Shown here: positions 1,116 to 53,975 of the stretch, in pieces | Numbering within the stretch: position 1 is the stretch's first letter | How the letters are laid out: the number at the start of each line of letters is the position of its first letter | Assembly (NCBI GenBank): GCA_016215325.1 | Contig: JACRJV010000026.1 | Span: 95,955 to 159,954, forward strand | Reading direction: 5' to 3' | Length of the DNA stretch: 64,000 nt | DNA from: Candidatus Uhrbacteria bacterium | Lineage (GTDB): Bacteria; Patescibacteriota; Patescibacteriia; JACRJV01 | Notes under the pieces: generated by a model | Told to the model about the DNA's origin: nothing | Seen by the model: the letters and a program-made list of their open reading frames with translations, nothing else | The model's database searches: none | Program-made: the position numbers and the translations under genes

Positions 1116-1179
1116 AATAAAAATCCAATTTTCAGATATATGGAAAATTGAAAATGGAAAATTGAAAATTCGTCTCATA

Positions 1180-1812
1180 TCACCAATTGTACAACCGATC
1201 TTCGACTTCGATCTTGCGCGCCCGACCCCCCTCTTGCCACGTGACGCGCGCGATGACCTGCACTCCAATCGTCCCGCCTTGCCCAGAATCAATATCGTTA
1301 AACACGCAACTGGACGACGTATCGCTGCCCAAATCATCGACTTGCGTCGACCCAGAGGAGCAAATCGGATAGAGCTGGACCGCTCGATGATATTTTGTCG
1401 CCCCGCTCGAAGGACCTGGTTGGACAAATTGATTGGACTGGAAGGCGATAGTCGTATTATCCGGGGATGATGTTTTGGCAATCAGAATCGGGTTATCGGT
1501 GCCAATAGCAGCAGTGTTGATCGCATAGTCCCCTTCGATGTTGATCCCGGCATTCCACCGGACCGATTCGCCCGTGGCATCCCGCTTATATTTGTTCGAG
1601 TCGCGGATATTGCGGACAATCTCGATCCCCTCCCGGGCAAAGTTCGCGGCTTGCACTTCATTCAAACTTGTTTTCGTCTGCACCGCATTGCCAAAACTTA
1701 ACCCGATAATTGCAAACAGCCCAGTCGTAATTACAAACAAGGCGATCAACATCTCTAAGACTGTGTTTCCGCGTTCTCGATGGAACCTATTTTTATTTGG
1801 GTTCAACTGCAT
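1180..1812 (-). CDS. Type IV pilin / pseudopilin (leader MQLNPNKNRFHRERG|NTVLEMLIALFVITTGLFAII)
   Basis: Prepilin-type N-terminal methylation motif G-x-T-V-L-E plus a hydrophobic helix; it sits in tandem with the neighbouring pilin gene. Confidence 0.6.
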   Translation of the reverse strand: MQLNPNKNRFHRERGNTVLEMLIALFVITTGLFAIIGLSFGNAVQTKTSLNEVQAANFAREGIEIVRNIRDSNKYKRDATGESVRWNAGINIEGDYAINTAAIGTDNPILIAKTSSPDNTTIAFQSNQFVQPGPSSGATKYHRAVQLYPICSSGSTQVDDLGSDTSSSCVFNDIDSGQGGTIGVQVIARVTWQEGGRARKIEVEDRLYNW

Positions 1813-1830
1813 AATCGCCGAAAACCAACA

Positions 1831-1969
1831 TTCAATTTCTAATTCCCAATTTCTAATTTCTAATGTCCGCCAGAGGCTGATCAGCCCTTGGCTGAAAATG
1901 TACGCTATCGTAATTTGTTATTTTGACATTGAAATTTTCATTGGAAATTAGGAATTGGGTATTGGAAAT
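1831..1969. repeat. Large imperfect palindrome: left arm (TTCTAAT/TCCCAAT)n at 1831-1864, right arm (ATTGGAA/ATTAGGA)n at 1931-1969, with the perfect 12-bp palindrome GGCTGATCAGCC (1875-1886) in the middle.
   Basis: Read directly from the sequence. This locus belongs to the dispersed heptamer-palindrome family described in the findings. Confidence 0.7.
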
Positions 1970-2544
1970 CCGCCGCTGATGCGCCTTAATACTTCCGCTT
2001 CCAACCGGCAATCTTCCAGTGCATCATGGAATCCCCGCGGCGGCAAGCCAAAATGTTGGAACACGGTTTCAGAATCTGGAATGTTATTCCAACCCTTTTG
2101 CATCAGGTGCGCCCACGTGAGGGTAAAGAGGTCCAGCGCATGGTGGTTATATTCGCGACCCCATTGATAGCCAATGGATTTGAGCAGTTGACTCAAAAAC
2201 GCAACATCAAAGGCTACCACCCACGCCGCCACGATCACATCGGTGCCAAAGGTCGCTACAAACTTCTCGGTCACGTCTTCCATCCGCGGCGCTTGCGCAA
2301 TCGCATTGTAGTCAATCTGGATTTTTTTCAGTGCCCATTGCTCGATAGGGAAATGTTCGTCTTGGTGGATATGGGAAACAAATGATTTTTTCTCTACAAG
2401 TGTCTCACGGTCCAACAGCACCGCGCCGATTTGCAACGGCACATGGACATACGGGTCTGATCCGCTTGTTTCGATATCGATGATGAGGAGGTCTTTGGGG
2501 AACATAGAATTCGAACCTAGTATACTATAAAACCGCTCTTCCAC
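1948..2544 (-). CDS. DEDDh 3'-5' exonuclease (DnaQ / Pol III epsilon-like)
   Basis: Exo I motif IIDIETSG and Exo III motif H-DALEDC, in a stand-alone protein of about 198 aa. Confidence 0.6.
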   Translation of the reverse strand: MEERFYSILGSNSMFPKDLLIIDIETSGSDPYVHVPLQIGAVLLDRETLVEKKSFVSHIHQDEHFPIEQWALKKIQIDYNAIAQAPRMEDVTEKFVATFGTDVIVAAWVVAFDVAFLSQLLKSIGYQWGREYNHHALDLFTLTWAHLMQKGWNNIPDSETVFQHFGLPPRGFHDALEDCRLEAEVLRRISGGFPIPNS

Positions 2545-2577
2545 GCTAGCTTGGAAGAGCGGTTCCTTGTTGACGTA

Positions 2578-4785: not shown

Positions 4786-6774
<1,989 letters not shown>

Positions 6775-7976: not shown

Positions 7977-7985
7977 ATTTACTAT

Positions 7986-8012
7986 TTAGCACTCCATTAT
8001 ATAGAGTGCTAA
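7986..8012. promoter_or_regulatory. CIRCE operator TTAGCACTC-N9-GAGTGCTAA (HrcA binding site)
   Basis: Exact consensus match: ttagcactc cattatata gagtgctaa, 10 bp upstream of the hrcA start. Confidence 0.9.
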
Positions 8013-9896: not shown

Positions 9897-10223
9897 AGAT
9901 ACTCTCTAGTATATCCTAACATTGGGCAATTCAGCAATTGGGTATTATGTGGATCGTAGCTCTCGTCATACGTAAGGAGTATACCAACGAGCTTCTACAT
10001 CCCAATTTCGCCATTCTGGTCACCGCAGCGGGCGGAGTCCCGCCCTCGGCGTTGCCTTGGGCAGAATCTGACGAAATTGACTTGAGTACAATGCCCGACC
10101 TGGACAAGATTCCAGGTTTGTGCTATACTTACTTCTCAAAAAGAAACTGCCGTGCTGACAAACGTCGAGGTTCGCCCACAGTTATCGATTTGAATTTTAT
10201 TCGCCCATTTCTTGACTATTGCT

Positions 10224-10427
10224 ATGCAACAAGGAACAATCGCCCGTCTCACAGACCGTGGCTTTGGATTTATCGCCCGCGAAGGTGAGGAAAAAGAACT
10301 CTTTTTCCACGCTAGCGCCCTGGTCGGTGTCCAATTCACCGATCTCAAAGAGGGGGACAAAGTGACCTTCGAAGTCGGACAAGGCCCAAAAGGCCCGAAC
10401 GCCACGAATGTCCAACGCGTGAGCTAA
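10224..10427 (+). CDS. cspA: Cold-shock protein (CspA family)
   Basis: MQQGTIARLTDRGFGFIAREGEEKELFFHASAL… carries the RNP1/RNP2 motifs; 67 aa. Confidence 0.9.
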   Translation: MQQGTIARLTDRGFGFIAREGEEKELFFHASALVGVQFTDLKEGDKVTFEVGQGPKGPNATNVQRVS

Positions 10428-11398: not shown

Positions 11399-11540
11399 AG
11401 TTTATTCTCTGAATAAGTCCATCTCCTTATTCCACTTCTCAACTCGCAATATAGCATTTTTGTACACTGTCGATTTTGGCTGGTCAATCAATTCTGCTAA
11501 ATCGCAAAGTTCGTTGATTCGCCCGTAGATTACCATTCGC

Positions 11541-11582
11541 AAAATGGGGTCAGCCACCAAATGAAAATGGGGTCAGCCACCA
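11541..11582. repeat. Left terminal repeat of the RAYT element: tandem aaaatggggtcagccacca x2
   Basis: It is an imperfect inverted repeat of tggtgactgaccctatttttcatttgg at 12270-12296. Confidence 0.55.
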
Positions 11583-12247
11583 TTTCTTGGCCTCCCAACC
11601 CCACGCACCGTTTGATCCAGTCCAAAGCGTTGAATCATTGTACTCTGCCATTCTGGTTCTCCAAAGGGCATGCTTTTTAGTACACTCCGTTGAATAGATT
11701 TTTCCTCATCTTCGGTCTGCGGCTTGTTAAGCCACGTGAGATACCCCCTACCCGGTGGAATGGGCCAGATAGACAATAACTTTTTTTGTTCATCGGAACC
11801 ATTCTCTCTTCTCCAAACACTTGACCACTTCCAATCTTCTGCCTTTTCTACAATGTTTGCCCGTTTTGCATTGCGCTCCACGTATCGAACCAATGTAAGA
11901 AAATATATATCGTCCTGCACGAGAAATGCCTTATAGCGACCTTGATACAAGTGGCCTTGTCCAATAGTTTCTTTTTGCGCGTGCCATCGGCGCGTATGCG
12001 TATTGGTGAGCCAGCCCATAAACTGAGAAAGATCCCCATCGTTCTGAGGATGCACCACTAGATGCCAATGATTTGGCATGACACAATATGCCAGTAAACG
12101 CATCTTGTACTTTTCGATCGCCTCCTCGAGGATTTCTTCGAACTGTTGGTAGTCTTTCTTATTATCAAAGATACGCACGCGAGCGTTAGCGCGATTGAGA
12201 ACGTGATAGATATAATCGCCAGCATCGACGCGTGCTAATCTGGGCAT
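11573..12247 (-). CDS. IS200/IS605-family Y1 (HUH) transposase, RAYT / REP-associated tyrosine transposase type
   Basis: HUH motif CVMPNHWHLVV; N-terminal YHVLNRANAR; YxxxY…RY tyrosine region (RYVERNAKRANIV). Confidence 0.7.
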   Translation of the reverse strand: MPRLARVDAGDYIYHVLNRANARVRIFDNKKDYQQFEEILEEAIEKYKMRLLAYCVMPNHWHLVVHPQNDGDLSQFMGWLTNTHTRRWHAQKETIGQGHLYQGRYKAFLVQDDIYFLTLVRYVERNAKRANIVEKAEDWKWSSVWRRENGSDEQKKLLSIWPIPPGRGYLTWLNKPQTEDEEKSIQRSVLKSMPFGEPEWQSTMIQRFGLDQTVRGVGRPRNGG

Positions 12248-12269
12248 ATGATAGCATTATATCATAATA

Positions 12270-12296
12270 TGGTGACTGACCCTATTTTTCATTTGG
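12270..12296. repeat. Right terminal inverted repeat of the RAYT element
   Basis: tggtgactgaccctatttttcatttgg is approximately the reverse complement of aaatgaaaatggggtcagccacca. Confidence 0.55.
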
Positions 12297-12575: not shown

Positions 12576-12653
12576 TGGTAGCCCCATGGGGATTCGAACC
12601 CCAGTTTTCTGGCTGAGAACCAGACGTCCTAGACCGGGCTAGACGATGAGGCC
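12576..12653 (-). tRNA. tRNA-Glu, anticodon CUC, with encoded CCA and a G1-U72 wobble pair
   Basis: On the minus strand: GGCCTCA TC GTC… anticodon arm TCTGG-TTCTCAG-CCAGA; T-arm TGGGG-TTCGAAT-CCCCA; 3' acceptor TGGGGCT-A-CCA. The acceptor pairs throughout, with two G-U wobbles. Confidence 0.6.
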
Positions 12654-14324: not shown

Positions 14325-14365
14325 TAAGAGATAAAGAGATAAGGAGATGAAGAGATAAAGAATAC
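14325..14365 (-). promoter_or_regulatory. CU-rich tandem octamers (CTTTATCT CTTCATCT CCTTATCT CTTTATCT, mRNA sense) ending 6 nt before the AsnRS-like start codon
   Basis: Read from the sequence; a related copy lies ahead of pyrE at 15217-15245. Confidence 0.4.
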
Positions 14366-15245: not shown

Positions 15246-16130
15246 TTAAGATTGATTGAACTGCGTAATATCATCGTGCATTTTTTGGGCCACTGCTCTT
15301 GCGGCCAGGGCAAAATCGGGGCCACTCGATGCGAATAGTACTCCACTGGAATTATTGATGATCATCCCCTGCTTTTTGGCATTGCGGCCATTCTTGACCG
15401 CTTTTTCCAAATCCCCTCCTTGTTTGCCAATACCGGGGATGAGCAATGGCATATCGCCCACGAGTTGACGAATGATGCCAAGTTCTTCGGGATACGTCGC
15501 GCCAGCAACAATAGCACAATTGCCATTTGAGTTCCACACTTCTGATACTTGTTTTGCAACCACCTGATATAATATCGCACTGTCCAAAGCTGGCTTCACT
15601 GGATTTACCGGCTTTACCGGCGAGCTGATCGTAAGATCCTGGAACTCCCCTGCCCCGGGGTTTGAGGTCCGAGCGAGCACAATGATCATTTTATCGGCAC
15701 GATCCAAAAAGGGCTTGAGGGCCTCTTTGCCGAGATACGGATGCACCGTGATCGCATCCGCCCCCAGCCAATCAAACGCGAATTTCACGTACCCATTGTT
15801 GGTATTGCCAATGTCCGCCCTCTTGGCATCAAGGATCAAGGGGACCTCCGGAGCTTTTTCATGAATGAAATCCACGGTGCGCTTGAGCACAGAGATCCCG
15901 CAGGTGCCGAGCGCCTCATAAAATGCGCTGTTCGGCTTATAAGCGCAGACAATATCTTTGGTCGCCTCAATAATCTCGGCATTAAAATCCACAATCGCGT
16001 CTTCCTCAAAATCCGGTTCCTTTTTAAGGTGCGGCGGGAGTTTTTCGTAATCACTATCAAGCCCCACGCACACAAACTTCCCTTCAGCCCAACGGGCATT
16101 GAATAATTCCATGGCGTTACGATCGGACAT
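15246..16130 (-). CDS. pyrF: Orotidine-5'-phosphate decarboxylase (type 2, long form)
   Basis: LDAKRADIGNT, …VCVGLDSDYEKLPPHL…, and VHPYLG. Confidence 0.75.
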   Translation of the reverse strand: MSDRNAMELFNARWAEGKFVCVGLDSDYEKLPPHLKKEPDFEEDAIVDFNAEIIEATKDIVCAYKPNSAFYEALGTCGISVLKRTVDFIHEKAPEVPLILDAKRADIGNTNNGYVKFAFDWLGADAITVHPYLGKEALKPFLDRADKMIIVLARTSNPGAGEFQDLTISSPVKPVNPVKPALDSAILYQVVAKQVSEVWNSNGNCAIVAGATYPEELGIIRQLVGDMPLLIPGIGKQGGDLEKAVKNGRNAKKQGMIINNSSGVLFASSGPDFALAARAVAQKMHDDITQFNQS

Positions 16131-21785: not shown

Positions 21786-21860
21786 AACGAGATTGAATGA
21801 TGTATTAATTTATTACTTTATTCGTTTGTTGACGCACACCAAAAATAAATAAACGAAAAA

Positions 21861-23980: not shown

Positions 23981-24931
23981 TTATACGTGTTCGGCGGCCC
24001 GCAATCGTGCACTGCGCGAGGTGGGGTACTGGCGGAGTTCTTCGGTCGAAGGAGTAATAGATCTTGCCGTTAACAATTTGACGGTCGCCGAGGTACCGCA
24101 AATGCAAATCGGCGCCTCGGGCGGGCAAACGCAGGACTTCGCTAACATCCGCAGCGTCTGTTTTACAATCCGATCTTCGAGCGAATGATACGAAATAATC
24201 ACAATCCGGCCGTTTGGGTTCAGGACATCCACCCACACCTTGATGGCACGCTGGATAATGGCCAGCTCATCATTGACCGCAATCCGAAGGGCTTGGAGCA
24301 CCAGTGTCATCGGATTGTGGCGGCGATGCGCTCGCACAAGAGGGACAACAAGGAACTCTAACTCGCCAACAGTGGTCAGCGGCGATACGCCGCGATACTG
24401 GACGATAGTGCGTGCAAGCTGTTTTGCAGATGGCACTTCTCCATATTCGCGCAACCAGCGTTCGATCTCTTGCGCACTCTTGTCGCGTAAGAGGTCTGCA
24501 GCGGTCGGGATGGCGGCGCTCGGATCAAATCGCAGATCCAACGGGGCGGAGGCGTAGCGGAAACTCATCCCGCGTCTGGGATCTTCGAGGTGCTGGATCG
24601 CCACTCCCAGATCGAGCAGCACTCCATCGACGTGGGTTTTACCGGCAGCCCCGAGAATCTCTGCCACGTGGTCATAAGAGTTATGGACAAGCATGACACA
24701 ACTCTTCCAGGCAGCAAGGGTTTCCGCGGCAGCCAGCAGCTGCTGCGGATCTCGATCGACGCCGATGAGCATCCCATCATGACCAGCGCAAATGACTTCT
24801 GCAATGCGTTTGGCATGCCCTCCGGATCCGACAGTACCATCGACCACTGTCTGACCGGGAGCGCACGCTAAGTATTGAATAGCTTCATTCGCGAGGACGG
24901 GATGATGGCTCAAAAAAATTCCAATTTCCAA
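23981..24931 (-). CDS. rsmH: 16S rRNA (cytosine1402-N4)-methyltransferase RsmH / MraW
   Basis: VDGTVGSGGHA…, DLGVA-type SAM-binding motifs; gene adjacent to mraZ. Confidence 0.85.
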   Translation of the reverse strand: MEIGIFLSHHPVLANEAIQYLACAPGQTVVDGTVGSGGHAKRIAEVICAGHDGMLIGVDRDPQQLLAAAETLAAWKSCVMLVHNSYDHVAEILGAAGKTHVDGVLLDLGVAIQHLEDPRRGMSFRYASAPLDLRFDPSAAIPTAADLLRDKSAQEIERWLREYGEVPSAKQLARTIVQYRGVSPLTTVGELEFLVVPLVRAHRRHNPMTLVLQALRIAVNDELAIIQRAIKVWVDVLNPNGRIVIISYHSLEDRIVKQTLRMLAKSCVCPPEAPICICGTSATVKLLTARSITPSTEELRQYPTSRSARLRAAEHV

Positions 24932-25004
24932 TTTCCAATTTCCAATGAGCGATCGGCATCGATATTGAAAATTGAAAATTGAAAATTCATTGTAAATTGA
25001 AAAT
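24918..25004. repeat. mraZ-rsmH intergenic palindrome: (TTCCAAT)x4 on the left arm, (GAAAATT)n on the right
   Basis: attccaatttccaatttccaatttccaat … gaaaattgaaaattgaaaattcattgtaaattgaaaattt. Confidence 0.7.
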
Positions 25005-25469
25005 TTATACTCCCAGTTCTCTCATCTGCTCGGCAATATCCACACTATTGGTTTCTGCCTGGAGCTTGTACTGCTCCCACGCCTCCTCATCCCATAATTC
25101 GATCCGAGAATACAAACCGGCGACAACCACCTGCTTATTCAACTTTGCGTATTGGCGGAGGTATTCGGGCAATACGATCCGACCATTACCATCGAGCTCC
25201 GCGTCCATAGCGCCGCCGAACATGAGCCGAGCGAATGCCCGCGGATTGGATTGGGATATCGGCAGCGCGGAGAGCTTTTCTGCCAACTGCTTCCAGGAGT
25301 CTGCGGGGAACAAAAAAAGACACTGGTCAATTCCGCGAGTAACAACAGCGCCTTTCTTGAATTGTGCTTGATATTTTTTGGGGATGGCAAGCCGCCCCTT
25401 ATCGTCCAATGTGTGGTGGTATTCTCCGATGAAGATTGCCATACGTGAATGAACAGGACTTATCCCCAC
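25005..25469 (-). CDS. mraZ: Transcriptional regulator MraZ
   Basis: MFLGEYHHTLDDKGRLAIP motif duplicated (…GAMDAELDGNGRIVLP…). Confidence 0.9.
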   Translation of the reverse strand: MGISPVHSRMAIFIGEYHHTLDDKGRLAIPKKYQAQFKKGAVVTRGIDQCLFLFPADSWKQLAEKLSALPISQSNPRAFARLMFGGAMDAELDGNGRIVLPEYLRQYAKLNKQVVVAGLYSRIELWDEEAWEQYKLQAETNSVDIAEQMRELGV

Positions 25470-25546
25470 TTATATCCACTTTGAACCACTATGTACCAAT
25501 TATACTCCAAATTGTCCACAACGTCAACCAATCTTAACCACAGGTC

Positions 25547-25647
25547 GCTGAACGAATTACGACCGAATCAGACCGAATAGTCAAGAACATAAAAGACCAC
25601 GCACGGGGGCGCGGCTCATTCGTCCTGATTCGTTAGATTCGTTCAGT
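25547..25647. repeat. Palindrome upstream of mraZ: gctgaacgaat-tacgac-cgaatcagaccgaatag … cctgattcgttagattcgttcagtg
   Basis: Arms of about 25 nt built from (CGAATCAGAC)-type units, roughly 45 nt apart. Confidence 0.6.
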
Positions 25648-28403: not shown

Positions 28404-28498
28404 TACAAATCGCTGACCGAATACGAAAACGCCGTCCAATGTTAGACGGCGTTTTTCGATTCGGGAAAATTCGGACCGGGTTCGGTCACCGATTCGTA

Positions 28499-28915: not shown

Positions 28916-28992
28916 GAGTGAATCCCGCTTAGCCAGTGAATCCCGCCGGCCAGCTACTGGCTCACCGGATTTACTGGATTTACTGGATTTAC
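28916..28992. repeat. rplJ-rplL intergenic palindrome: (AGTGAATCCCGC)x2 on the left arm, (GGATTTACT)x3 on the right
   Basis: gagtgaatcccgcttagccagtgaatcccgcc … ggatttactggatttactggatttact. Confidence 0.65.
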
Positions 28993-31434: not shown

Positions 31435-32160
31435 TCACGGATGCAGCGTTGTTGCGGCAAACGCTTTGCCCTCTAAAGCATTTTTCAAATTGGCCAATTT
31501 ACCCCCATCCATAACCGTGACTGTCAACCCGTGGCGCTGCGCAAACGCAGCGGCCACTGGGTCAAACGGCGCGTGGGCGGACGGTTTGAACGTCTTCATA
31601 CCCAGAATTTTTTTGTACTGCTTCCACGTGAGCTCTGGGTATGCCACCGCATGTTTATCATAACGAGGGTCGCCGGAGTAAACGTAGTCCACGTTTGTAA
31701 GATTAAAAATTCGCTTTGCATGGTAGGTCTTGCCGAGCACCACCGCATCTTTGTCCGTTGAATGCCCAGGTAACCACCCGGCCGCGATCGCAACAGGATG
31801 ATCAAGATTCACTCGTACCGTTGGGTCACCCAGCACGGCGGGATGGCTATAGGGGGAAAACAACACCCTAAAAAATTCTGCGTTTAATTTTGTGGCCGCA
31901 ATGCCAATCCAATGGCGGTCTACTTCCTTGGCTTTGGGGTTCAACGCCAAAGCAGCCTTGGCATAGGAACGACTCGGTCCCCCGCCGCCGGTGACAATAA
32001 TAAACCGCTGTCCACGCCGAACATACTTGAGGATCAGCTCTCGGAACTTCTTAAGATAAACACCCTCAATATGGCCGATGGTCTTGCCAGAATGATCCGT
32101 TGGGGCAATCAGAGACCCGCCGATAGACAGAACGATCATACTTAGATTTCTAATTATCAA
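31435..32160 (-). CDS. pyrH: Amino-acid-kinase family protein, archaeal-type UMP kinase-like
   Basis: MIVLSIGGSLI…; RFIIVTGGGGPSRSY; the C-terminal region is AAK-like. Confidence 0.5.
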   Translation of the reverse strand: MIIRNLSMIVLSIGGSLIAPTDHSGKTIGHIEGVYLKKFRELILKYVRRGQRFIIVTGGGGPSRSYAKAALALNPKAKEVDRHWIGIAATKLNAEFFRVLFSPYSHPAVLGDPTVRVNLDHPVAIAAGWLPGHSTDKDAVVLGKTYHAKRIFNLTNVDYVYSGDPRYDKHAVAYPELTWKQYKKILGMKTFKPSAHAPFDPVAAAFAQRHGLTVTVMDGGKLANLKNALEGKAFAATTLHP

Positions 32161-32201
32161 AATTTGGACATCAAAAATTTTATTGGGAATTGGGAATTAG
32201 A
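32143..32201. repeat. Weak member of the heptamer-palindrome family (…ctaattatcaaaat … attgggaattgggaattag)
   Basis: Read from the sequence. Confidence 0.4.
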
Positions 32202-32937
32202 TATTATGTTTCCGTATAATAATATTTTTTGCTGCTTGATACCTCTCTATCGTCTTCTTCCACCATGGCAAATATTTAAAGGGGGCGTGATACGCGAATG
32301 AGGGAACCCACTGGCTCATGGTCCCGCCGGTGGCTATGGTGTAGAGTACTTCCGGGATGAATACCCCCCTGCCGCCGCGCTCGGCAATTGTTAAAAAGAG
32401 GTCCCAGTCCTGGAATTTCTTGAGGCTCTCGTCAAACCGCGGGAAGGCACCGCGGCGCAGTAAAGAGCTAGTATGAATGTAGTTCAATTGGCGCAATGTT
32501 GCAAGATCAAAGGGGAATGAACTAAACTTCTTATGACTAAAAAGGAATTGGCTGTAGCTGAATGCCGCGTCCGGGTGTTGCTCGAGCGCTTCCCACATTT
32601 TTTCAAGACAATCCGGCTCCAGACGAATATCGGCATCACAAAAAAAGAGAAGGTCACCATTGCAAGCATCAAACCCGCGATTGCGCGCAGCGGCTGCTCC
32701 CCTATTTTGTTGATCAATCCATTGTATGGAGAATCCCTTACGTTGTAGTAAATCTGCAATCTGCAATCTGCAATCTGCAATCGTATCCGTCGATCCATCA
32801 TTGACAATAATAATCTCAGTTTCTATTCTAATGTTTTTAAGAACATTAGAATAGATAGATTGTTCAAGAATACTCTCGACACAGGCTTCGAGTTCTTTGG
32901 CGTGATTATATACCGGGATGATGATCGAAACTAGCAT
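32197..32937 (-). CDS. Family 2 glycosyltransferase
   Basis: MLVSIIIPVYN…; IIVNDGSTD; …FCDAD. Confidence 0.8.
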   Translation of the reverse strand: MLVSIIIPVYNHAKELEACVESILEQSIYSNVLKNIRIETEIIIVNDGSTDTIADCRLQIADLLQRKGFSIQWIDQQNRGAAAARNRGFDACNGDLLFFCDADIRLEPDCLEKMWEALEQHPDAAFSYSQFLFSHKKFSSFPFDLATLRQLNYIHTSSLLRRGAFPRFDESLKKFQDWDLFLTIAERGGRGVFIPEVLYTIATGGTMSQWVPSFAYHAPFKYLPWWKKTIERYQAAKNIIIRKHNI

Positions 32938-38667: not shown

Positions 38668-39792
38668 TTATAATGCACCTCCGGTGCGTTCCAGGATACG
38701 AGACAACTTCTGTACCCGTTGAGTCCACTGAAACTCTCTTAACACCCGCTCTCTTCCTGTAGCTCCCATAGTATTCATCCTGTCCGAGTCATTCAACAAA
38801 TCAATAATGTCCTGGACGATTTTTTTGATATCTGTCGGGCTCGTGAGCACCCCAGTGCCGCCATCTTCCACCGCCTCCGGCACGCCTCCACTGCGTGCTG
38901 CCACCACCGGCAAACCATACAGTGCCGCTTCCAGGCACACCATGCCAAACCCTTCCACATCGCCGTTGGGCAGTTCTCGCGGCAAAAAGACAAAGCAGTC
39001 GGCAGCGCGATAGAATTGAGCAAGCCGCTCTACAGAGGCCGAAGGTTCAAATCGAATGACATCGTGGACATCGAGTTGATCGGCCAATACTTCAATGCGC
39101 CGGCGATCCGGTCCGTCGCCGACAAACGTCCAGTGGAATTTCTTTCCCTGTTTTTTGAGTTCGGCGGCAACAGACACGGCGGCATCGTATCCTTTGCGTT
39201 CAACAAACCGGGCGATGGTAAGGAGGCGCCAGGTCGTCGCGTCATCCTGAGGGAAGGCCGAAGGATCTCGAGATTCTACGCTCGACCCAGAATGACGAAC
39301 AGCGGCAATGACGGTTGCCGACGGACACGGAGTGAGCACTGTTATTTTTTCTTTATCAATTCCGTACTCCAAAACAATCTTTTTTGTATATTCCGAATTC
39401 GTGATGACCCAGGTTGCACGCTGCATCACCTTTTTTGCAATCCATCGCTTGCGGCCGTTCAGTGCGAGATCAAGACCATGCGCAAAAATTCCGTAACGAA
39501 ATCCAGGTATTAAATCATTAAACCAATAAACTAATAAATCAATAAACCAAACCGCTTCTCCAACAGGCAATACCTCGCCCGCAAATATGATGCTTGCCTT
39601 GTGTCTTTTCATCTCCCTGAGAATCCGCCACAGCATCGGGAGCCACCGCGGAAAAAATCCCCAGTATAATTTTTCTTCGCCCACGAACGGAATAATCTTT
39701 CCTTCACTCGCATCCACAAGTCCGCGATAATATTCCCCCACTCCGCCCACCATGGGCGGGTATTCCAACGCGGCTAACAGTATTCTGTTCAT
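38668..39792 (-). CDS. Family 4 (GT-B) glycosyltransferase
   Basis: …FVFLPRELPNGDVEGFGMVCLEAALYGLPVVAARSGGVPEAVEDGGTGVL (EX7E-type motif). Confidence 0.8.
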   Translation of the reverse strand: MNRILLAALEYPPMVGGVGEYYRGLVDASEGKIIPFVGEEKLYWGFFPRWLPMLWRILREMKRHKASIIFAGEVLPVGEAVWFIDLLVYWFNDLIPGFRYGIFAHGLDLALNGRKRWIAKKVMQRATWVITNSEYTKKIVLEYGIDKEKITVLTPCPSATVIAAVRHSGSSVESRDPSAFPQDDATTWRLLTIARFVERKGYDAAVSVAAELKKQGKKFHWTFVGDGPDRRRIEVLADQLDVHDVIRFEPSASVERLAQFYRAADCFVFLPRELPNGDVEGFGMVCLEAALYGLPVVAARSGGVPEAVEDGGTGVLTSPTDIKKIVQDIIDLLNDSDRMNTMGATGRERVLREFQWTQRVQKLSRILERTGGAL

Positions 39793-45314: not shown

Positions 45315-46064
45315 TTAGGGTTGATCAGTGCTTTCCAAAGGGGCTTCTTGTTCAACCACTACTCCCTGGCCCGTAGAAAGTGTTTGCAAAAATTGAAATT
45401 GATCGATCAAAATAGCAAGGGACTGTTCCACCGCCTCTTGTGGCGAAACCGTCCCGTCGGTTTCCACCGCTAGTTGGAGTTTATCATAGTTGGTCATCTG
45501 CCCGACACGAACGTTTTCGAGGTGTACTCCAACGCTGCGCACAGGGGTAAAAATGGCATCCACAGCAATTGTGCCAATCGCGAGCTTCTGTTTTGTATCG
45601 CGAGTTTCCGTCGGAACATATCCTCTCCCCCGTTCAATGGTAAACTCCATTGAAAGGCGAGCGTCCTTCGCTGTGAGGGTAGCAATGACTTGTTCCGACG
45701 ACGCAACCTCTACCTGCGCATTGGGTTCAATGTCAGCAGCAGTCACTGTTTTCGCCCCTCGCGCATTAAGACGAACGGTGACCGGTTCATCGCCGTGGAG
45801 GCGGAATCGCAACTGTTTGATGTTTAACAAAATTTCGACGATATCTTCCTTCACGTTTTCTATCGTTGAAAACTCATGACTTACGCCATCAATCCGGACA
45901 GCGACGACGGCAGCGCCGGGTAACGAATTGAGTAATACCCTTCGCAAGGCATTGCCCAGCGTTGTCCCATACCCTGGGAACAACGGCTCAATGACGAGCG
46001 TCTTACGGTTGCTCGAATCGCCCTGTTGCCATGCAAATTTGCTTGGCTTGGAAATAGTTTCCAT
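45315..46064 (-). CDS. rpoA: DNA-directed RNA polymerase alpha subunit, N-terminal domain only (no alpha-CTD)
   Basis: LFPGYGTTLGNALRRVLLNSLPGAAVVAVRIDGVSHEFSTIENVKEDIVEILLN; the protein ends at about 249 aa. Confidence 0.85.
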   Translation of the reverse strand: METISKPSKFAWQQGDSSNRKTLVIEPLFPGYGTTLGNALRRVLLNSLPGAAVVAVRIDGVSHEFSTIENVKEDIVEILLNIKQLRFRLHGDEPVTVRLNARGAKTVTAADIEPNAQVEVASSEQVIATLTAKDARLSMEFTIERGRGYVPTETRDTKQKLAIGTIAVDAIFTPVRSVGVHLENVRVGQMTNYDKLQLAVETDGTVSPQEAVEQSLAILIDQFQFLQTLSTGQGVVVEQEAPLESTDQP

Positions 46065-46697: not shown

Positions 46698-46789
46698 AAT
46701 TTTCAATTTTCAGTTTACAATTTTCAATTCAGTCGCATGTTTGAAAATTGTGTCTTGAAAATTCATTGGAAATTGATAATTGAAAATTT
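46698..46789. repeat. rpsK-rpsD intergenic palindrome of (AATTTTC)n and (GAAAATT)n arms
   Basis: aattttcaattttcagtttacaattttcaatt … ttgaaaattgtgtcttgaaaattcattggaaattgataattgaaaattt. Confidence 0.7.
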
Positions 46790-47708: not shown

Positions 47709-47789
47709 AATTTCAGATTTTAGATTGTAGATTGATGATTCTAGAGCGTATGCGATTATTCTGCAATCTGAAATCTAAAATCTGCAATG
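47709..47789. repeat. rpsM-rpmJ intergenic palindrome of (CAGATTT/TAGATTG)n arms
   Basis: aatttcagattttagattgtagattgatgattctag … attctgcaatctgaaatctaaaatctgcaatg. Confidence 0.7.
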
Positions 47790-48205: not shown

Positions 48206-50140
48206 TCAAGACCGCCCTGGGTACTCTTCACCGGCCTGTTCGCCCTCGGCCATGGTACTGCCCCCGGAAATCACGGCTTTAATGCGACGAATGCCAGCGC
48301 TCACCGCTTCCTCCTTGGTGATCTTGAGCGTCCCGACTTGGCTCGTATGCCGCACATGCGGCCCTCCGCAAATTTCGACAGAGTAATATTGCCCCAAGGC
48401 GCCCATCTTGTAGACTTTGACCGTTTCGCTGTAGCGCTCATCAAAAACGCCGGTCGCGTTCTCCGCCCTCGCCTGCTCTAATGGCATCACCTCATAATGC
48501 ACCGGTAAATCCTTCGACAGATGTTCGTTGGTCAACGTTTCGATTTCGGCAATCTGCTGGGTGGTTAACCTTTCGGGATAATTAAAGTCTAACCGCAGAC
48601 GCTCGGAAGTAATGTTACTCCCCCTTTGGTTCACATCGCGGCCCAACACGCGCTTCATGCTTTCGAGCAACATGTGATTGGCGGTATGGAGCCGTACGGT
48701 GTTCACGGCGTGGTCCGCAAGCCCGCCATGAAATTTTTGCCCTGCACCCGAGCGTGAACGCTCTTGGTGCTTTTTGAGCTCTTCGTCAAACGCCGCTCGA
48801 TCGATCATGATCCCCCGTTCAACGGCGAGCTCTTGGGTCATCTCCACGGGGAATCCATAACTTTGGTACAAATCAAACGTTTGTTGCGTGGGTAACGTTC
48901 CCCCCGCGCTCACTGCGCCGCTGGCTTGCTCAAACACTTTGAGGCCAACGGCAAGGGTCTTGCGGAATTTTTCTTCTTCCGCTTGCATAATCAGCGCCAC
49001 ATCATCTTTTTTTGTTGTAAGGTATGGCATCGATCGTGCATATTCTTCGATCACTGCTGCCGCAACATCAGCGCAGAATCCCGGCCGAAGATCAAGGACA
49101 TTGCCAAACCGGATCGCCCGGCGCATGAGTCGGCGCGTAAAATAGCCTTGATCTTTATTCGATGGCAATGCCCCATCGGCAATCAAAAATGTTGCCGCCC
49201 GAAGGTGATCCATAACGACACGGAATGCCTTTGTGTGCTCTGGATCCGCGCCATAGGATTTGCCGCTGGATTGTTCGAGGATTGTTTTTGACTTTGCAAA
49301 CAAATCAATCAAGAACATATCCGGGCTATCATTGAGTGCCGCAGCGATCCGTTCAAGCCCTCCGCCAAAATCAACGTTTTTTTGTGGGAGTTCTTTAAAC
49401 CCCTCTTGGACACGCTGGTATTGCATGAACACGCTGTTGCCGATTTCAAAAAACCGTCCGCAATCGCAATTGACATGGCAGGGGAGGGCCTTCCATGGCG
49501 ATTGCTCATGCAATTCCCGCTCCACTCCAAAATCCCAAAAGATTTCGGTGTCTGGTCCCCCGGGCTCCCCCACCGGCATATTAGCTGGTACCCCGGATCG
49601 GCTCCACCAATTCTTTTTTTCATCGTAGTAAAAGATCCGGCCGTCGCGCATACCCAGTGTTACTGCATCCGCATACGCAATCGCATCAATGCCAACCTGT
49701 GCATAGACTTCCTTCCAAAGCGCTACCGCTTCGTCATCGCGAGGGATCCCGATTTCTGCATTGCCGCCAAACACCGTACCATACAATCGTTTGGGATCAA
49801 GCCCGACCTCCGTAGTCAAAAATTCAAACACCCACGGGATCTGCTCTGCTTTAAAATAGCTGCCCAACGACCAATTACCCAACATTTCAAAAAAAGTCGT
49901 ATGGCGATTGTCGCCCACCTCATCCATATCAACAGCGCGGAAACAGCGTTGGGAATTTACCAACCGATTGCCTTCAGGGTGCTTTTCTCCTAGCAAAAAT
50001 GGGACCAACGGCTGCATGCCCGAACTTGTAAATAACGTCGTCGGATCGTTATCCGGCAACAACGGCGCCGAGGGCAGCACCGCATGGCCGCGAGCCTTAA
50101 AAAAATCAAGATATTTTTGGCGGAGTTCATGGGAAGTCAT
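48206..50140 (-). CDS. alaS: Alanine--tRNA ligase, short form lacking the C-terminal DHHA1 extension
   Basis: MTSHELRQKYLDFFKARGH…FTSSGMQPLVPFLLG…NRHTTFFEMLGNWSLG…; editing-domain HxxxH region present. Confidence 0.85.
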   Translation of the reverse strand: MTSHELRQKYLDFFKARGHAVLPSAPLLPDNDPTTLFTSSGMQPLVPFLLGEKHPEGNRLVNSQRCFRAVDMDEVGDNRHTTFFEMLGNWSLGSYFKAEQIPWVFEFLTTEVGLDPKRLYGTVFGGNAEIGIPRDDEAVALWKEVYAQVGIDAIAYADAVTLGMRDGRIFYYDEKKNWWSRSGVPANMPVGEPGGPDTEIFWDFGVERELHEQSPWKALPCHVNCDCGRFFEIGNSVFMQYQRVQEGFKELPQKNVDFGGGLERIAAALNDSPDMFLIDLFAKSKTILEQSSGKSYGADPEHTKAFRVVMDHLRAATFLIADGALPSNKDQGYFTRRLMRRAIRFGNVLDLRPGFCADVAAAVIEEYARSMPYLTTKKDDVALIMQAEEEKFRKTLAVGLKVFEQASGAVSAGGTLPTQQTFDLYQSYGFPVEMTQELAVERGIMIDRAAFDEELKKHQERSRSGAGQKFHGGLADHAVNTVRLHTANHMLLESMKRVLGRDVNQRGSNITSERLRLDFNYPERLTTQQIAEIETLTNEHLSKDLPVHYEVMPLEQARAENATGVFDERYSETVKVYKMGALGQYYSVEICGGPHVRHTSQVGTLKITKEEAVSAGIRRIKAVISGGSTMAEGEQAGEEYPGRS

Positions 50141-50494: not shown

Positions 50495-51685
50495 TTAACG
50501 TTCCACCATTTCAATAATCCCCCCTCCCAGCAGTTCAAGCCCTTCCGCAGTGTCCTGGTAGAATACCACGCTTTGGCCGGACGTCAAAGCCCGCTCCGGC
50601 TGATCGAACGTGCAGATGATCGTCTGCGCACTGGCCCCTGGAACTCCCGCCTCAGCGGGGCCCCGCCCTGGCGGTGACTGGCCCCTGGAACCTGAAACCA
50701 CGGCTGTCGCGCCCGGGTGCCGATACCGCGGCTTAGCAATCACCCGAATCGGCTCTGGTGGAGGTTGACCGCTCAACCAGTTCACTTTTGATAAAATAAC
50801 AGTCCGCGCAAAAAGCGTCTTATCTTCTGCACCGATCGAAACCACCAGAGTATTTGTTACATAATCTTTTTGTGCCACATAATACGGCCCGCCGCCGCCC
50901 AGCCCCAACCCCTCGCGCTGGCCAATCGTATAAAATGCGAGCCCGCGATGCCGGCCGATTTCCTCGCCCGTTGTGGTCACAACCACTCCTTCAGATTGCT
51001 GCCGGATTCGCGATTGTAAAAACTCTTGGACATTGTTTTTAATAAAACACACCTCTTGGCTTTCCTTTTTGAGCGCCACGGGCAACTCCATCTCTTGCGC
51101 CAATGTCCGCACCTGCGGCTTGGCGAACTCGCCAATCGGGAATAGGAGGCGCTTGAGCTTTTCTTGCGTCAAGGTATACAAAAAATACGACTGATCTTTG
51201 TGGGGGTCTTGGGCGACAAACAATCGTTGCCGAAATTGGGAATTGGGAATTGGGAATTGAAAATTTCGTACATAGTGCCCGGTGGCAAAATAAATACTCT
51301 CTTTCTCTGCTTCTGCCGCTTCAGAAAGGATCCTGTCAATCAGCTCAAACTTAATCGTTCGATTGCACTCCACGCAAGGGTTCGGGGTGAGCCCAGACTC
51401 ATATCCAACCAAAAATGGTTTCACCACGTTCTGACGAAATTGTTCTCGTAGATCCATCACCGTCAACGGGATGCCAAGGTGGTCGCACACGCGTTGGGCA
51501 TCATTCATGGCATCCAAATTGCAGCAATTGGTAAAATCCTTTCCACCCGGCACAAGGCCATCCACATCCCCCCAGTAGCGCATAAAAACTCCGCGTACCT
51601 CAAAACCGCGCTGCCCAAGCAGCGCGGCGGCGACCGAGGAATCAACTCCGCCGGACATCGCGACGTAGACTATTGTTCTATCCAC
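50495..51685 (-). CDS. mnmA: tRNA-specific 2-thiouridylase MnmA (carries an in-frame copy of the heptamer repeat)
   Basis: PP-loop VAMSGGVDSSVAA; …KDQSYFLYTL…; C-terminal GQSVVFYQD…GGGII. Confidence 0.85.
   Translation of the reverse strand: MDRTIVYVAMSGGVDSSVAAALLGQRGFEVRGVFMRYWGDVDGLVPGGKDFTNCCNLDAMNDAQRVCDHLGIPLTVMDLREQFRQNVVKPFLVGYESGLTPNPCVECNRTIKFELIDRILSEAAEAEKESIYFATGHYVRNFQFPIPNSQFRQRLFVAQDPHKDQSYFLYTLTQEKLKRLLFPIGEFAKPQVRTLAQEMELPVALKKESQEVCFIKNNVQEFLQSRIRQQSEGVVVTTTGEEIGRHRGLAFYTIGQREGLGLGGGGPYYVAQKDYVTNTLVVSIGAEDKTLFARTVILSKVNWLSGQPPPEPIRVIAKPRYRHPGATAVVSGSRGQSPPGRGPAEAGVPGASAQTIICTFDQPERALTSGQSVVFYQDTAEGLELLGGGIIEMVER
51231..51268. repeat. Intragenic copy of the (AATTGGG)n heptamer element, in-frame in mnmA (encodes NFQFPIPNSQFR)
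   Basis: cgaaattgggaattgggaattgggaattgaaaatttcg with palindromic ends cgaaatt/aatttcg. Confidence 0.65.
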
Positions 51686-51990
51686 AAATTTATTTTATAC
51701 CATCATCTCGTTTAATAATCCGATCAAGATTCGAAACAATCTCTTGGAGCCGTGCACGGAATTCTGGCAACATCGTGGGGCTCATGTGCTTGAAGATTGC
51801 ATCATAGTCTTCGCTTGCTGCCCCGCGCAGTCCCGACCAGAGCGTATTCAATGCATGAATAAACGGCGCGCTCTCAACAGGCTGGGAGAAATCGACGTTC
51901 TCAACTGCGTGCCCCCCCCGCTACAGGATTAATGGGCCGATTGGGATCAAACGGTTTTTCGCCTTCCATAGACGTTTTTTAATAGATACA

Positions 51991-53895
51991 TCATTGCCGC
52001 AACCGCATGCTCTGCCCAGGCTTCAGCACCGTGGGTTTCACAGGGACCGGTTTGGGCTCTGGGGCCCCGCGATCTGAGGCCCCAACAATGGGGGATGTAG
52101 CCGGGGCATCGGCTGGTGATGGTATTGCGCTTGGCCCACCGCTCGTTCTGGGTTGTTGTACTCGGCCGCGGAAATCTACCGGCTTCATCTGCATCGCCGC
52201 ATCCAGACTCATGGGGGCAGGCGTCTCTGCGCTTTTGGCAGACAGAGCAGGAGGTTTCTCTGCGACAACCACCACCGGCGCTGCTCTGCCGGAGCGTACC
52301 TCTTTGAGGCACTCTTTGCAATAAATCGGTTTGGAGGGGTCTGGAATAAAATTGAGCATGGTGTCGGTCCCGCAGCGGCTGCACTTGTATACGGCTGGGT
52401 TGTCCACCGGCGGCTTGGCGTTTTCGGGCGGCTTCTTTTTTTTGCGTTTTTTTGTTTGGAGTTCACCACTGCCTGCTCCGCTGCCCGGGATGGCTGCGGG
52501 GGCGGGGACAATCGTTTTTACGGGTTGCGCCGCAGGCGCTGCATCCATTCGGCGTACCACAACAGGGGCGCTGGAGGCAGCCGAACCCGTTGTGGTCGCA
52601 ATCCCTTCGCTCCATCGATTAATCTTATCCTCAACCACCTCTCTGCTCGTGCCATACCGTTCGCGAGAGACTGCGATCACTTTCGCGTTGTTGTTTTGCC
52701 GCTGCGAAAGCGGCGGCAAAATCGTTGCAGAAAATGGGTCCGAAGAGACTCCGTCAATCATGAGTTTCAAATATACGGAGTATTTAGCCAGATTCACAAG
52801 GTCTTCCTCCGTAAATCGGGGGGTAAACTCTGGCACCAATTTGAGCGCATCCGCCCCGCCCACCCGGAACGAAATAATCGTGCCCACGTTGCCGAACACC
52901 GCGGCTGCCACTTTCTCATCCAGCTGTTCAATATACTGGTGTGCGACAATAAGGCTCAAACGATATTTCCGCGCCTCGGACAAAATGTTAGAAAAACTTT
53001 CTGTCGCAAAATTCTGGAACTCATCCACGTATAAGTAAAAGTCTCGGCGGTCATCTTCGGGCGTGTCCACGCGCTCCATGGCGGCCAGTTGAATCTTGGT
53101 GATTAGCATCCCGCCCAAAAGCCTTGAATTATCCTCTCCAATGCGCCCTTTTGCCAGGTTCATCACAAAAATCTTCCCGCTGTCCATGATATCGCGCACG
53201 TTAATGGTCGAACGGACTTGGCCCACAATATTGCGGATCACCGCCGTCGACAGAAATTGTCCAACCTTATTTTGGATTGGCGCGATGGCTTCGGATGCGT
53301 AGCGGTCATTGTATTTCGCAAATTCATTCACCCAGAACGATTTGACCACCGGGTCGTTAATCTTGGCGATCACGCGTTTACGGAAGTTGGTGTCCGCCAA
53401 CATCCGGTTGATCCCCAGCAGCGTCGATCCCGGGTAATCCAAAAGCGCTAAGACAGTATTATTTAAGATGTATTCCATGCGCGCGCTCCACACATCCGGC
53501 CAGATTTTTTTGAACACGCCCATGAGTCCCGACGCGATCAAGTGTTTGTGCGTTTCATCCACGGTTTCGAGTATATTGAATGCAAGCGGATAATTCACAT
53601 CCGACGGATTCATATAGACCACGTCGTTGATCCGATGCGAGGGAATAAAATCAAGGATGCGCTCTGCAAAATCGCCATGCGGATCCACGATGCCCACCCC
53701 ATGTCCGGCCATGATGTCATTGAATAAGAGATTTTCGAGCAAATTGGTTTTGCCCATGCCGGTTTTCCCAATCACATACATATGCCGGCGTCGATCGTCG
53801 GTTTTAATGCCAAACCGACGCCGTTGGTTCCGAAAGTTCGTTTCGGCAAACACGGCGATTTCATCATTATGGTCGTGGTCGTATTCTATCGGCAC
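51991..53895 (-). CDS. VirD4/TraG-type (type IV coupling protein-like) P-loop ATPase with a C-terminal zinc ribbon
   Basis: Walker A IGKTGMGKTNLL; VDPHGDF; Walker B/DEF YLYVDEFQNF; ARKYRLSLIVAHQYIEQL; C-terminal CSRCG…CKEC. Confidence 0.55.
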   Translation of the reverse strand: MPIEYDHDHNDEIAVFAETNFRNQRRRFGIKTDDRRRHMYVIGKTGMGKTNLLENLLFNDIMAGHGVGIVDPHGDFAERILDFIPSHRINDVVYMNPSDVNYPLAFNILETVDETHKHLIASGLMGVFKKIWPDVWSARMEYILNNTVLALLDYPGSTLLGINRMLADTNFRKRVIAKINDPVVKSFWVNEFAKYNDRYASEAIAPIQNKVGQFLSTAVIRNIVGQVRSTINVRDIMDSGKIFVMNLAKGRIGEDNSRLLGGMLITKIQLAAMERVDTPEDDRRDFYLYVDEFQNFATESFSNILSEARKYRLSLIVAHQYIEQLDEKVAAAVFGNVGTIISFRVGGADALKLVPEFTPRFTEEDLVNLAKYSVYLKLMIDGVSSDPFSATILPPLSQRQNNNAKVIAVSRERYGTSREVVEDKINRWSEGIATTTGSAASSAPVVVRRMDAAPAAQPVKTIVPAPAAIPGSGAGSGELQTKKRKKKKPPENAKPPVDNPAVYKCSRCGTDTMLNFIPDPSKPIYCKECLKEVRSGRAAPVVVVAEKPPALSAKSAETPAPMSLDAAMQMKPVDFRGRVQQPRTSGGPSAIPSPADAPATSPIVGASDRGAPEPKPVPVKPTVLKPGQSMRLRQ

Positions 53896-53904
53896 AAAAT
53901 CGTA

Positions 53905-53975
53905 TGAATTCCCAATTCCTAATCTCTAATACCCAATGAAATGGCGGGTATTGGAAATTGGAAATTGGAAATTGG
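53905..53975. repeat. Palindrome of (CCCAATT/CTAAT)n and (ATTGGAA)x3 arms between the ATPase gene and its membrane partner
   Basis: gaattcccaattcctaatctctaatacccaatg … cgggtattggaaattggaaattggaaattt. Confidence 0.7.

Follow-up and report, generated by a model that had tools for sequence, protein, structure and literature searches.

A 64-kb window of a 'Candidatus Uhrbacteria' genome (Candidate Phyla Radiation, CPR), through which alone we saw the source genome, carries a dense set of dispersed intergenic palindromes whose arms are built from short tandem repeats and which lie mostly between co-directional genes. Sequence comparison shows that these elements are insertions into junctions that measure 0–35 nt in most other CPR genomes, that several families share one genome, and that copies within a genome have become alike in their units, between their arms and from locus to locus. 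We see a roughly even chance that they are small non-autonomous palindromic repeats that copy themselves at the DNA level, like the cyanobacterial short tandemly repeated repetitive (STRR) sequences or miniature inverted-repeat transposable elements (MITEs). It is very improbable that they are repetitive extragenic palindromic (REP) sequences or bacterial interspersed mosaic elements (BIMEs).

Palindromes with tandem-repeat arms at operon junctions

An earlier sequence-only reading of the window had named 11 loci as copies of one family with one architecture, namely a repeat arm, a GC-richer centre and the reverse-complement arm. All 11 hold the sequences described for them, and the architecture is present in eight, the strong imperfect palindromes that begin at 1831, 6696, 24918, 25547, 28916, 46698, 47709 and 53905 (Table 1); the loci at 1119, 32143 and 51231 are one-armed or weak and fall short of it. 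A single family could not be upheld, as the repeat units fall into at least five. When minimum free energy (MFE) was compared with dinucleotide shuffles on both strands, the eight strong loci folded on either strand, with −23 to −52 kcal/mol and z-scores of −3.3 to −7.6 on the stabler one, and the computed folds agree with the hairpins of 60–140 nt that had been predicted. Tandem Repeats Finder (TRF), with arrays counted at period 6–13, gave 22 arrays in the window, 12 of them with a score of at least 45, compared with 0–3 arrays (about 1) and none at that score in each of 20 local shuffles. A scan for ungapped hairpins with at least 17 Watson–Crick pairs in 20 returned five in the window and none in five shuffles, and the reverse-complement partner of the array stood out at six loci (z = 6–12). 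The period was 7 at 1143, 1834, 24919, 24964, 32182, 46698, 46765, 47710, 47760, 51234 and 53950, and 8–12 in the remaining arrays. The stem scan and the TRF-based partner test replaced a 110-nt sliding-window scan of raw MFE, which mainly tracked GC content and missed the AT-rich elements; over-representation of 7-mers under a Markov model proved uninformative. Two palindromes (at 21795 and 28392) and four solo arrays (at 14326, 15592, 32751 and 39511) came in addition to the 11 loci. No element matched Rfam at the gathering threshold, the sole match in the window being a tRNA (12579–12653).

The gene context proposed for the elements was confirmed at grpE–dnaK, mraZ–rsmH, rplJ–rplL, rpmJ–rpsM and rpsK–rpsD, and the N-terminal extensions of the dnaK, rpsD and rsmH open reading frames (ORFs) are indeed translated repeats. 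Elements occupy 11 of the 31 co-directional spacers of at least 50 nt, none of the five divergent ones and one of the five convergent ones; every palindrome lies between co-directional genes except that at 28392, whose neighbours are convergent. Spacers of 300–650 nt, about 4.5 kb of long spacers in all, contain no element. The element-bearing spacers measure 57–135 nt, that is, the element plus 10–20 nt, with the upstream stop codon 0–8 nt from the 5′ foot or within it and the downstream start 5–22 nt past the 3′ foot.

Shine–Dalgarno (SD) sequences are nearly absent across the genes of the window (for example, at the starts 6681, 7275, 7976, 28909, 29514, 47703 and 50140), the sole clear case being AAGGAG-N10-ATG at 58262. 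A T stands at position −1 (TATG/TGTG) before about 22 of 31 start codons, and the same pattern is found in ribosomal-protein genes of 27 other CPR genomes (L002–L078; three to six of four to six genes each). As all 27 of the CPR loci lack SD sequences, with or without elements, their absence does not discriminate between the two.

The repeat units define at least five families. F1 consists of ATTGRRA heptamers (1119, 1831, 24918, 32143, 46698, 51231 and 53905), F2 of GTAAATCCA 9-mers (6696, 28916 and, within pyrF, 15592), F3 of AATCTRM heptamers (47709 and, within a GT2 gene, 32751), F4 of CGAATCAGAC-type 10-mers (25547 and 28392) and F5 of AATAAAYY 8-mers (21795 and, within an ORF, 39511). 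Copies of F4 in the window and in a relative (A, below) have the termini AGTACRAAT...ATTYGTACT (AGTACGAAT...ATTCGTACT) in common, with AGTACRAAT at 28402 and 28492. The non-periodic 14-mer CAATGAATTTTCAA is common to the elements at 24918 (at 24979) and 46698 (at 46755), and the non-periodic 13-mer GGGTATTGGAAAT to those at 1831 (at 1957) and 53905 (at 53946) and to the mraZ/rsmH element of a second relative (B, below). Slippage alone would not make such strings common to separate loci.

Turnover among relatives and other CPR genomes

Three syntenic relatives were recovered through homologue searches with GrpE, RsmH and S4 and through contig look-ups: A (GCA_900217965.1; loci L084, L092 and L249), B (Ga0209515_10000034; L087/L088 and L093) and C (GCA_040960315.1; L090, L094 and L250). 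Protein identity to the window is 74% (GrpE) and 86% (S4) for A, 56% (GrpE) for B, and 59% (GrpE) and 72% (S4) for C. A search of the metagenome collection with the DUF8128 protein returned just two distant matches.

The grpE/dnaK and rplJ/rplL spacers hold a tandem-arm hairpin in all four genomes, with units that differ. At grpE/dnaK the unit is GTAAATCCA in the window, AGTAAATCA in A, GCTTATCTC followed by a relic of an A-type arm in B, and a GAATCAT heptamer in C. Within the window, A and C, the copies in the two spacers are homologous to each other over their full length (~80 nt); in a multiple alignment the two copies are 72% identical within the window and 64% within A, compared with 56% and 58% for the orthologous pairs of the window and A. 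The window has CCAG/CTGG where A has CAAG/CTTG, a difference fixed in most units of either arm in the two spacers; four stem pairs there show compensatory (two-sided) changes, and C has another heptamer family in both spacers. These patterns amount to concerted evolution that spans the units, the arms and two loci separated by 22 kb.

At the other junctions the occupants vary. The mraZ/rsmH spacer has F1 heptamers in the window and B, a ACATTTGAC unit in A and, in C, a half element consisting of B's 5′ arm alone with the start codon directly after it. An F5 hairpin separates hrcA from grpE in B and C, where the genes overlap in the window and A; rpsK/rpsD has a palindrome in the window, measures 23 nt in A and carries a solo heptamer array in C; rpmJ/rpsM is occupied in the window only; and DUF8128/traG has F1 in both the window and C. 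F4 sits at infA/rpmJ and traG/mnmA in A, and at 25547 and 28392 in the window. Families of long standing thus sit at different junctions from one genome to the next. Near-identical assemblies of A, B and C (99.8–100% identity) show no differences in repeat number, and so give no evidence of hypervariability.

In 27 CPR loci that have the ribosomal-protein operon beside alaS, the junction spacers are mostly 0–35 nt. Long, hairpin-bearing spacers were found only in the window, in L010 (Doudnabacteria, at all four junctions), in L066 (another Uhrbacteria) and in L078. Short junctions in most CPR genomes argue that the elements are lineage-specific insertions and not ancestral to these operons. 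Array density per 10 kb is 3.1 in the window and 7.3 in L010, with a median of 1.0 over 81 loci (80 alanyl-tRNA synthetase (AlaRS) loci and L001). The heptamer ATTGGAA, seen in the window, L010, L077 and, as (ATTGGAA)3, in 11 viral contigs, was considered as a special conserved unit and rejected, because two scrambled heptamer triplets match more viral contigs (19 and 17); the known TAACTGA matches 107. Complete tandem-arm hairpins are present on some of the IMG/VR viral contigs that (ATTGGAA)3 retrieved: L103 1665–1855 (TCCAAAT/ATTTGGA), L105 near 127–147 (GGAAATT/AATTTCC) and L095 1056–1166 (CAGAGAA/TCTGAT).

The earlier reading had taken the palindromes as hairpins of polycistronic mRNA. 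Among 26 elements of known transcription direction, the sense strand is the stabler in 11 and the antisense strand in 14 (Wilcoxon p = 0.24), so the mRNA strand pairs no better than its complement and constraint at the RNA level did not emerge. Symmetry without a sense-strand bias, and thus without the mRNA-specific signature of G–U versus A–C mismatches, points to symmetry at the DNA level.

Individual elements and their surroundings

The window has a G+C content of ~52%, and 12% of it is intergenic on our own gene map. NCBIfam and Pfam confirm the gene names of the earlier reading in the operons hrcA-grpE-dnaK-dnaJ, mraZ-rsmH-ftsL-ftsI, rplJ-rplL and infA-rpmJ-rpsM-rpsK-rpsD-rpoA-rplQ, together with alaS, mnmA, a TraG-like ATPase and pilin-like genes. 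AlaRS (48206–50140), a short form of 644 aa, is 46–65% identical to that of CPR/Patescibacteria metagenome-assembled genomes in the genome collection. The rpoA product (45315–46064; L249 7972–8739; L250 9839–10546) has just 235–255 aa in this lineage, and since Pfam gives RNA_pol_L and RNA_pol_A_bac alone, the alpha C-terminal domain is apparently missing. For pyrH (31435–32139), the archaeal-type UMP kinase model fits far better than the bacterial one (1e-42 versus 1e-8). A CIRCE-like inverted repeat, TTAGCACTC-N9-GAGTGCTAA, lies directly 5′ of hrcA (~7985–8012, minus strand) and is the expected HrcA operator.

Table 1. Palindromes and solo arrays of the window (aaRS, aminoacyl-tRNA synthetase; −, minus strand;., no strand assigned)
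Positions	Strand	Type	Location	Units and folding
1119–1170	−	F1, asymmetric		four units GAAAATT/GGAAAAT versus ~1.5; z ~−0.3, partner z 2.7
1831–1969	−	F1 palindrome		31-nt AATTTCT/GGAAATT arms, 87% complementary; z −5.7 and −7.0
6696–6774	−	F2 palindrome	grpE/dnaK spacer	9-mer GTAAATCCA ×3 versus CTGGATTTAC; z −5.8 and −6.0
14326–14361	−	solo 8-mer array	ends 7 nt 5′ of class II aaRS start (14318)	AAGAGATA ×4.5 (sense strand TATCTCTT)
15592–15621	−	solo F2-like 9-mer array	in pyrF	CTGGATTTAC / GGCTTTACC
21795–21850	−	decayed F5 palindrome	downstream of ftsI	8-mer TTTATTNA
24918–25004	−	F1 palindrome	mraZ/rsmH spacer	TTCCAAT ×4 versus ATTGAAA ×3+; sense −27.3, z −4.4
25547–25647	−	F4 palindrome		~10-mer CGAATCAGAC; z −3.8 and −4.3
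28392–28510	.	nested F4-like palindrome	around bidirectional terminator	termini AGTACAAATCG / CGATTCGTACT
28916–28992	−	F2 palindrome	rplJ/rplL spacer	GTAAATCCA ×3 versus GCGGGATTCAC ×2; z −4.6 and −7.6
32143–32201	−	weak F1	GT2/pyrH spacer	(AATTCCC)2 after GT2 stop, poor partner arm; z −0.7 and −1.5
32751–32782	−	solo F3 heptamer array	in GT2 gene	AATCTGC ×4.6; length unchanged versus orthologues
39511–39550	−	solo F5 8-mer array	in ORF 38668–39792	TAAACCAA ×5
46698–46789	−	F1 palindrome	rpsK/rpsD spacer	AATTTTC versus GAAAATT
47709–47789	−	F3 palindrome	rpmJ/rpsM spacer	CAGATTT/TAGATTT versus AAATCTG, 88%; z −3.8 and −5.2
51231–51268	−	solo F1 heptamer array	in mnmA	AATTGGG ×3.7; no palindrome, z ~0
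53905–53975	−	F1 palindrome	DUF8128/TraG-like spacer	CCCAATT.. versus ATTGGAA ×4.4; z −3.4 and −5.9

The two F2 palindromes fit tightly between their genes: at 6696 the grpE stop lies 1–2 nt off the 5′ foot and the dnaK ATG (6681) 14 nt off the 3′ foot, and at 28916 the 5′ foot adjoins the rplJ stop directly, with ~7 nt between the 3′ foot and the rplL ATG (28909). The element at 24918 stops 5 nt short of the annotated rsmH TTG start (24913). At 1831 a 73-nt centre contains a GC hairpin; the element is upstream of a pilV-like gene, and its outer arm covers the final ~7 codons of a DEDD exonuclease gene. The asymmetric element at 1119 separates the pilV-like gene from a pilin gene with a GVG start near 1113. 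Relatives have counterparts of two others: a strong copy at the orthologous site of the 21795 element in B (L093 13030–13145), and an F1 palindrome in C orthologous to that at 53905 (L250 2336–2444). Mini-palindromes of the CGATCG/GATCGATC type are found at several element centres (window 24950–24965; L088 68–80 and 9948–9960; L006 2475–2490) and recall the core of cyanobacterial HIP1 (GCGATCGC); CGATCG occurs 44 times in the window as a raw count.

The F4 palindrome at 25547 wraps an intrinsic-terminator-like GC hairpin (25615–25596) with a T-run (CTTTTATGTT) and lies just 5′ of the mraZ promoter (25527–25499), which has 11 of 12 consensus matches and is the strongest promoter-like site of the region. 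Spaced GTGG repeats (AGTGGTTCAAAGTGGATATAAGTGGGGATAA; 25440–25530, minus strand) come after this promoter (TTGACG-17-TATAAT), in a sequence that is near-identical in the window, L092, L093 and L094; the GTGG repeats are probably the MraZ operator. The nested palindrome at 28392 lies between a convergent 765-aa gene and rplL, with both stop codons within its outer arms, and both proteins end in TLK*. In B (L093 6393–6496), where the palindrome likewise spans the two stops, the proteins of these genes end in VLK*/TLK*, and TAGAATT heptamers make up the palindrome, which encloses a bidirectional terminator. The extension of the 28392 element across both stops looks like palindrome growth by template switching. 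Only the inner hairpins of these two window elements (at 28392, GACGGCGTTTTTCG) are terminator-like, and no T-run follows the tandem arms themselves, as a rho-independent terminator would have.

Solo arrays also occur inside genes. Fifteen CPR orthologues lack the insertion of ~9 aa (FQFPIPNSQ) that the mnmA array encodes in a variable loop. In pyrF, a loop has a 14-aa insertion (PVKPVNPVKP), most of it encoded by the array; at this loop C has a different repeat insertion (VNQASQVNQAS). In C, F1 heptamers after GT2 are translated as a C-terminal extension, QFPIPNSQ (L094 2008–2808). A terminator-like hairpin (AAAGACTCTCCGTCAACGGAGAGTCT) lies further 5′ of the array at 14326.

Known repeat systems and rival explanations

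The sequence-only reading had likened the palindromes to REP/BIME elements and linked them to a REP-associated tyrosine transposase (RAYT) gene in the window. The likeness holds in that they are small, dispersed extragenic palindromes within operons; the hallmarks of REPs and the link to the transposase do not hold. The gene in question (ORF 11573–12247) has a Y1_Tnp domain (Pfam, 1.4e-21), and its best NCBIfam match is REP_Tyr_transpos at 68.5 bits, below the cut-off of 80 bits. It is flanked by repeats of its own, AATGGGGTCAGCCACC (also written GGGGTCAGCC), with one inverted copy upstream and two copies downstream, the latter as a tandem 23-mer ×2.3 (11532–11584 and 12262–12290). In the window, AATGGGGTCAGCCACC is found at these three flank sites and nowhere else, and it is absent from every tandem-arm palindrome; in C, a transposase-less inverted pair of the motif, ~90 nt apart (L090 4947–5072; also L090 4353–4368), resembles a REPIN. 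The partner repeat of the Y1 gene is therefore AATGGGGTCAGCCACC, and not the palindromes. Like REP, BIME and REPIN elements of Enterobacteria and Pseudomonas, the palindromes are dense within operons, extragenic between co-transcribed genes and genome-specific in sequence at conserved positions, and they form families that evolve within a genome, as REPINs do (PMC3116915). Three of the four defining features of REP/BIME elements are nevertheless lacking: REPs are GC-rich stems of 20–40 nt, whereas the elements are 60–140 nt with AT-rich arms of 25–35 nt and a GC-richer centre; REPs have a conserved foot tetranucleotide (e.g. GTAG) and a single consensus, whereas here at least five unit families have no common flanking motif; and REPs flank their RAYT gene, where the Y1 gene carries AATGGGGTCAGCCACC. 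REP/BIME membership is therefore largely refuted, and it seems very improbable that the Y1 transposase mobilised the palindromes. A possible mRNA-stabilising role is known for REPs.

The closest described systems are STRRs and other heptamer repeats, followed by MITEs and REPINs. Like STRRs, the arrays here have tandem units of ~7 nt (at least three copies), are almost exclusively intergenic, often end a few nucleotides 5′ of a start codon, have genome-specific units, differ between close relatives and are occasionally read through as protein. Unlike STRRs, they are found in a CPR host as several coexisting families, have other units, which include 8–12-mers, and fill the stop-to-start junctions of core operons. 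Typically, too, a GC hairpin lies between the array and its reverse complement, whereas just 1 of 170 sets is inverted in the genome of Beggiatoa (PMC4679880). The TAACTGA-type heptamers of Beggiatoaceae, Microcystis and some Bacteroidetes are intergenic, variable and near starts, with proposed translational or mRNA roles, and the Beggiatoa paper also notes that cold-shock proteins bind heptamer repeats (PMC4679880). The window has a cold-shock-domain gene at ~10089–10288. The canonical cyanobacterial STRR units are CCCCAGT, TTGGTCA and CAACAGT, and none of these three is among the TRF consensus units of the window. Nif-cluster spacers of Anabaena strains are reportedly 'highly variable but structured', and their STRRs are said to fold into stem-loops.

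MITEs such as Correia/NEMIS of Neisseria and Nezha of cyanobacteria are likewise non-autonomous palindromic insertions of 60–140 bp that vary in presence between relatives and are co-transcribed with neighbouring genes. MITE termini are conserved within a family, a likeness that may extend to F4; in the other families the inverted repeat takes up the entire arm, which leaves no separate termini to compare. The palindromic elements of Rickettsia resemble those studied here in that repeat sequence sometimes stands in frame within proteins (mnmA, pyrF). Unlike both, the window elements have internally tandem-repeated arms, and their copies inside genes are solo arrays that lack the full palindrome. 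Elements of this kind have so far been documented mainly as cyanobacterial STRR heptamer arrays, and the tandem-arm type of CPR appears to be undescribed. Our literature searches found no CPR-specific description; a survey of 118,019 genomes (2026) places CPR phyla, including Uhrbacteria, among those with the highest densities of perfect inverted repeats, but does not say what the repeats are, nor does it describe a tandem-arm architecture (PMC13155455), and a survey of short tandem repeats mentions neither CPR nor heptamers (PMC12699852).

If the elements are DNA-level repeats that copy themselves, replication slippage would account for the origin and length changes of arrays, and template switching within the palindrome could keep the arms symmetrical, even overwriting flanking gene ends as at 28392. 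Units or whole elements might be copied between loci by ectopic template switching, gene conversion or some transposase. They would then persist almost exclusively between the stop of one gene and the start of the next in the same direction, where a self-folding insert would do little harm, holding the upstream stop near the downstream start and leaving the SD-less start region unpaired; once in place, the hairpin might also serve as an intercistronic element of mRNA stability or processing. Several points weigh against this account. Neither a transposase, a target-site duplication nor a clean pair of empty and filled sites was seen in the window and the relatives, so mobility is something we infer; on inspection, no direct duplications flank copies of F1, F2 and F4, and the 64-kb window holds no parent autonomous element with the same ends. 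The homogenisation signal comes from few loci in four genomes, the evidence covers 64 kb of the source genome, and the idea that the elements are tolerated because they fold is drawn solely from their position. Finally, hairpins persist at grpE/dnaK and rplJ/rplL in all four lineages despite sequence turnover, and elements are absent from long non-coding spacers, which could equally reflect positive selection for an RNA function, with selfish spread second.

For these last two reasons, a primary RNA function is a serious rival: the elements would be functional intercistronic hairpins for differential mRNA stability or processing (e.g. RNase III sites or 3′-end protection) or for stop–start re-initiation without SD sequences, and their tandem-repeat make-up merely the way in which such hairpins easily arise. 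We think this explanation unlikely, though worth serious weight. It gains from the complete turnover of units beneath a conserved hairpin, from compensatory changes that preserve pairing, from hairpins at the same ribosomal-protein junctions in Doudnabacteria L010 and Uhrbacteria L066, and from the restriction to transcribed co-directional junctions at set distances from stop and start, away from divergent and long spacers, in a genome essentially without SD sequences; stem-loops between genes are known to set subunit stoichiometry in other bacteria (PMC4423207). It loses from sense pairing that is no better than antisense, from the many CPR genomes without elements at those junctions, from close relatives that differ in presence at rpsK/rpsD, rpmJ/rpsM and hrcA/grpE, and from half elements and in-gene solo arrays, which have no such role. 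The same lack of strand bias suits an origin as purely local mutational by-products, in which each spacer independently acquires a microsatellite and its mirror image, with no copying and no function. Slipped-strand template switching, or quasi-palindrome correction, explains arm symmetry, strand-neutral pairing, growth into gene ends (TLK*) and changes in unit number; arbitrary heptamer arrays are common, as the scrambled controls show, the arms at 24918 have been homogenised separately (TTCCAAT ×4 versus ATTGAAA), and solo arrays occur in coding loops. Such correction is a mechanism and not an element family, however, and alone it fails on families at unlinked loci and on the restriction to operon junctions. 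Non-periodic 13–14-mers and termini common to distant loci, one unit substitution fixed at two loci 22 kb apart, the same families at non-orthologous junctions in relatives and ~4.5 kb of long spacers without elements make the by-product explanation improbable. Arrays of DNA-level binding sites for a lineage-specific protein (a nucleoid protein, a regulator or a transposase) would explain why units are conserved across loci within a genome and change together, and would suit the strand-neutral symmetry; some transposons typically have inverted ends with multiple sites. Since 64 kb hold at least five unrelated units, with no elements in promoter or divergent regions, no candidate protein linked to the elements, and ATTGGAA not over-represented elsewhere relative to scrambled controls, we regard this as quite improbable.

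The elements could also be more than DNA-level repeats of a familiar sort. It is conceivable, although rather unlikely, that they form a new class of self-propagating tandem-arm palindromes in CPR that colonises stop-to-start junctions and has been co-opted as a standard intercistronic device of SD-less translation, in which the hairpin would bridge the terminating ribosome to the next start or yield processed short-leader transcripts, with units co-evolving across the genome with a trans-acting factor or copying enzyme.

Repeat palindromes amount to about 1 kb per 64 kb, within the dnaK, division and cell wall (dcw) and ribosomal-protein operons, which is unexpected because CPR/Patescibacteria genomes are ~1 Mb and tightly packed. 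In practice, the elements lead to wrong start-codon calls and spurious N- and C-terminal extensions (dnaK, rpsD, rsmH, GT2), and metagenome assemblies are likely to break at them. The window gives a concrete anatomy for the inverted-repeat signal reported for CPR (PMC13155455), and concerted evolution together with turnover at fixed junctions offers a tractable model of how small palindromic repeats come about and multiply where no transposase is obvious. If a role in mRNA processing or translational coupling were true, it would bear on how these bacteria decode polycistronic mRNAs without Shine–Dalgarno sequences.

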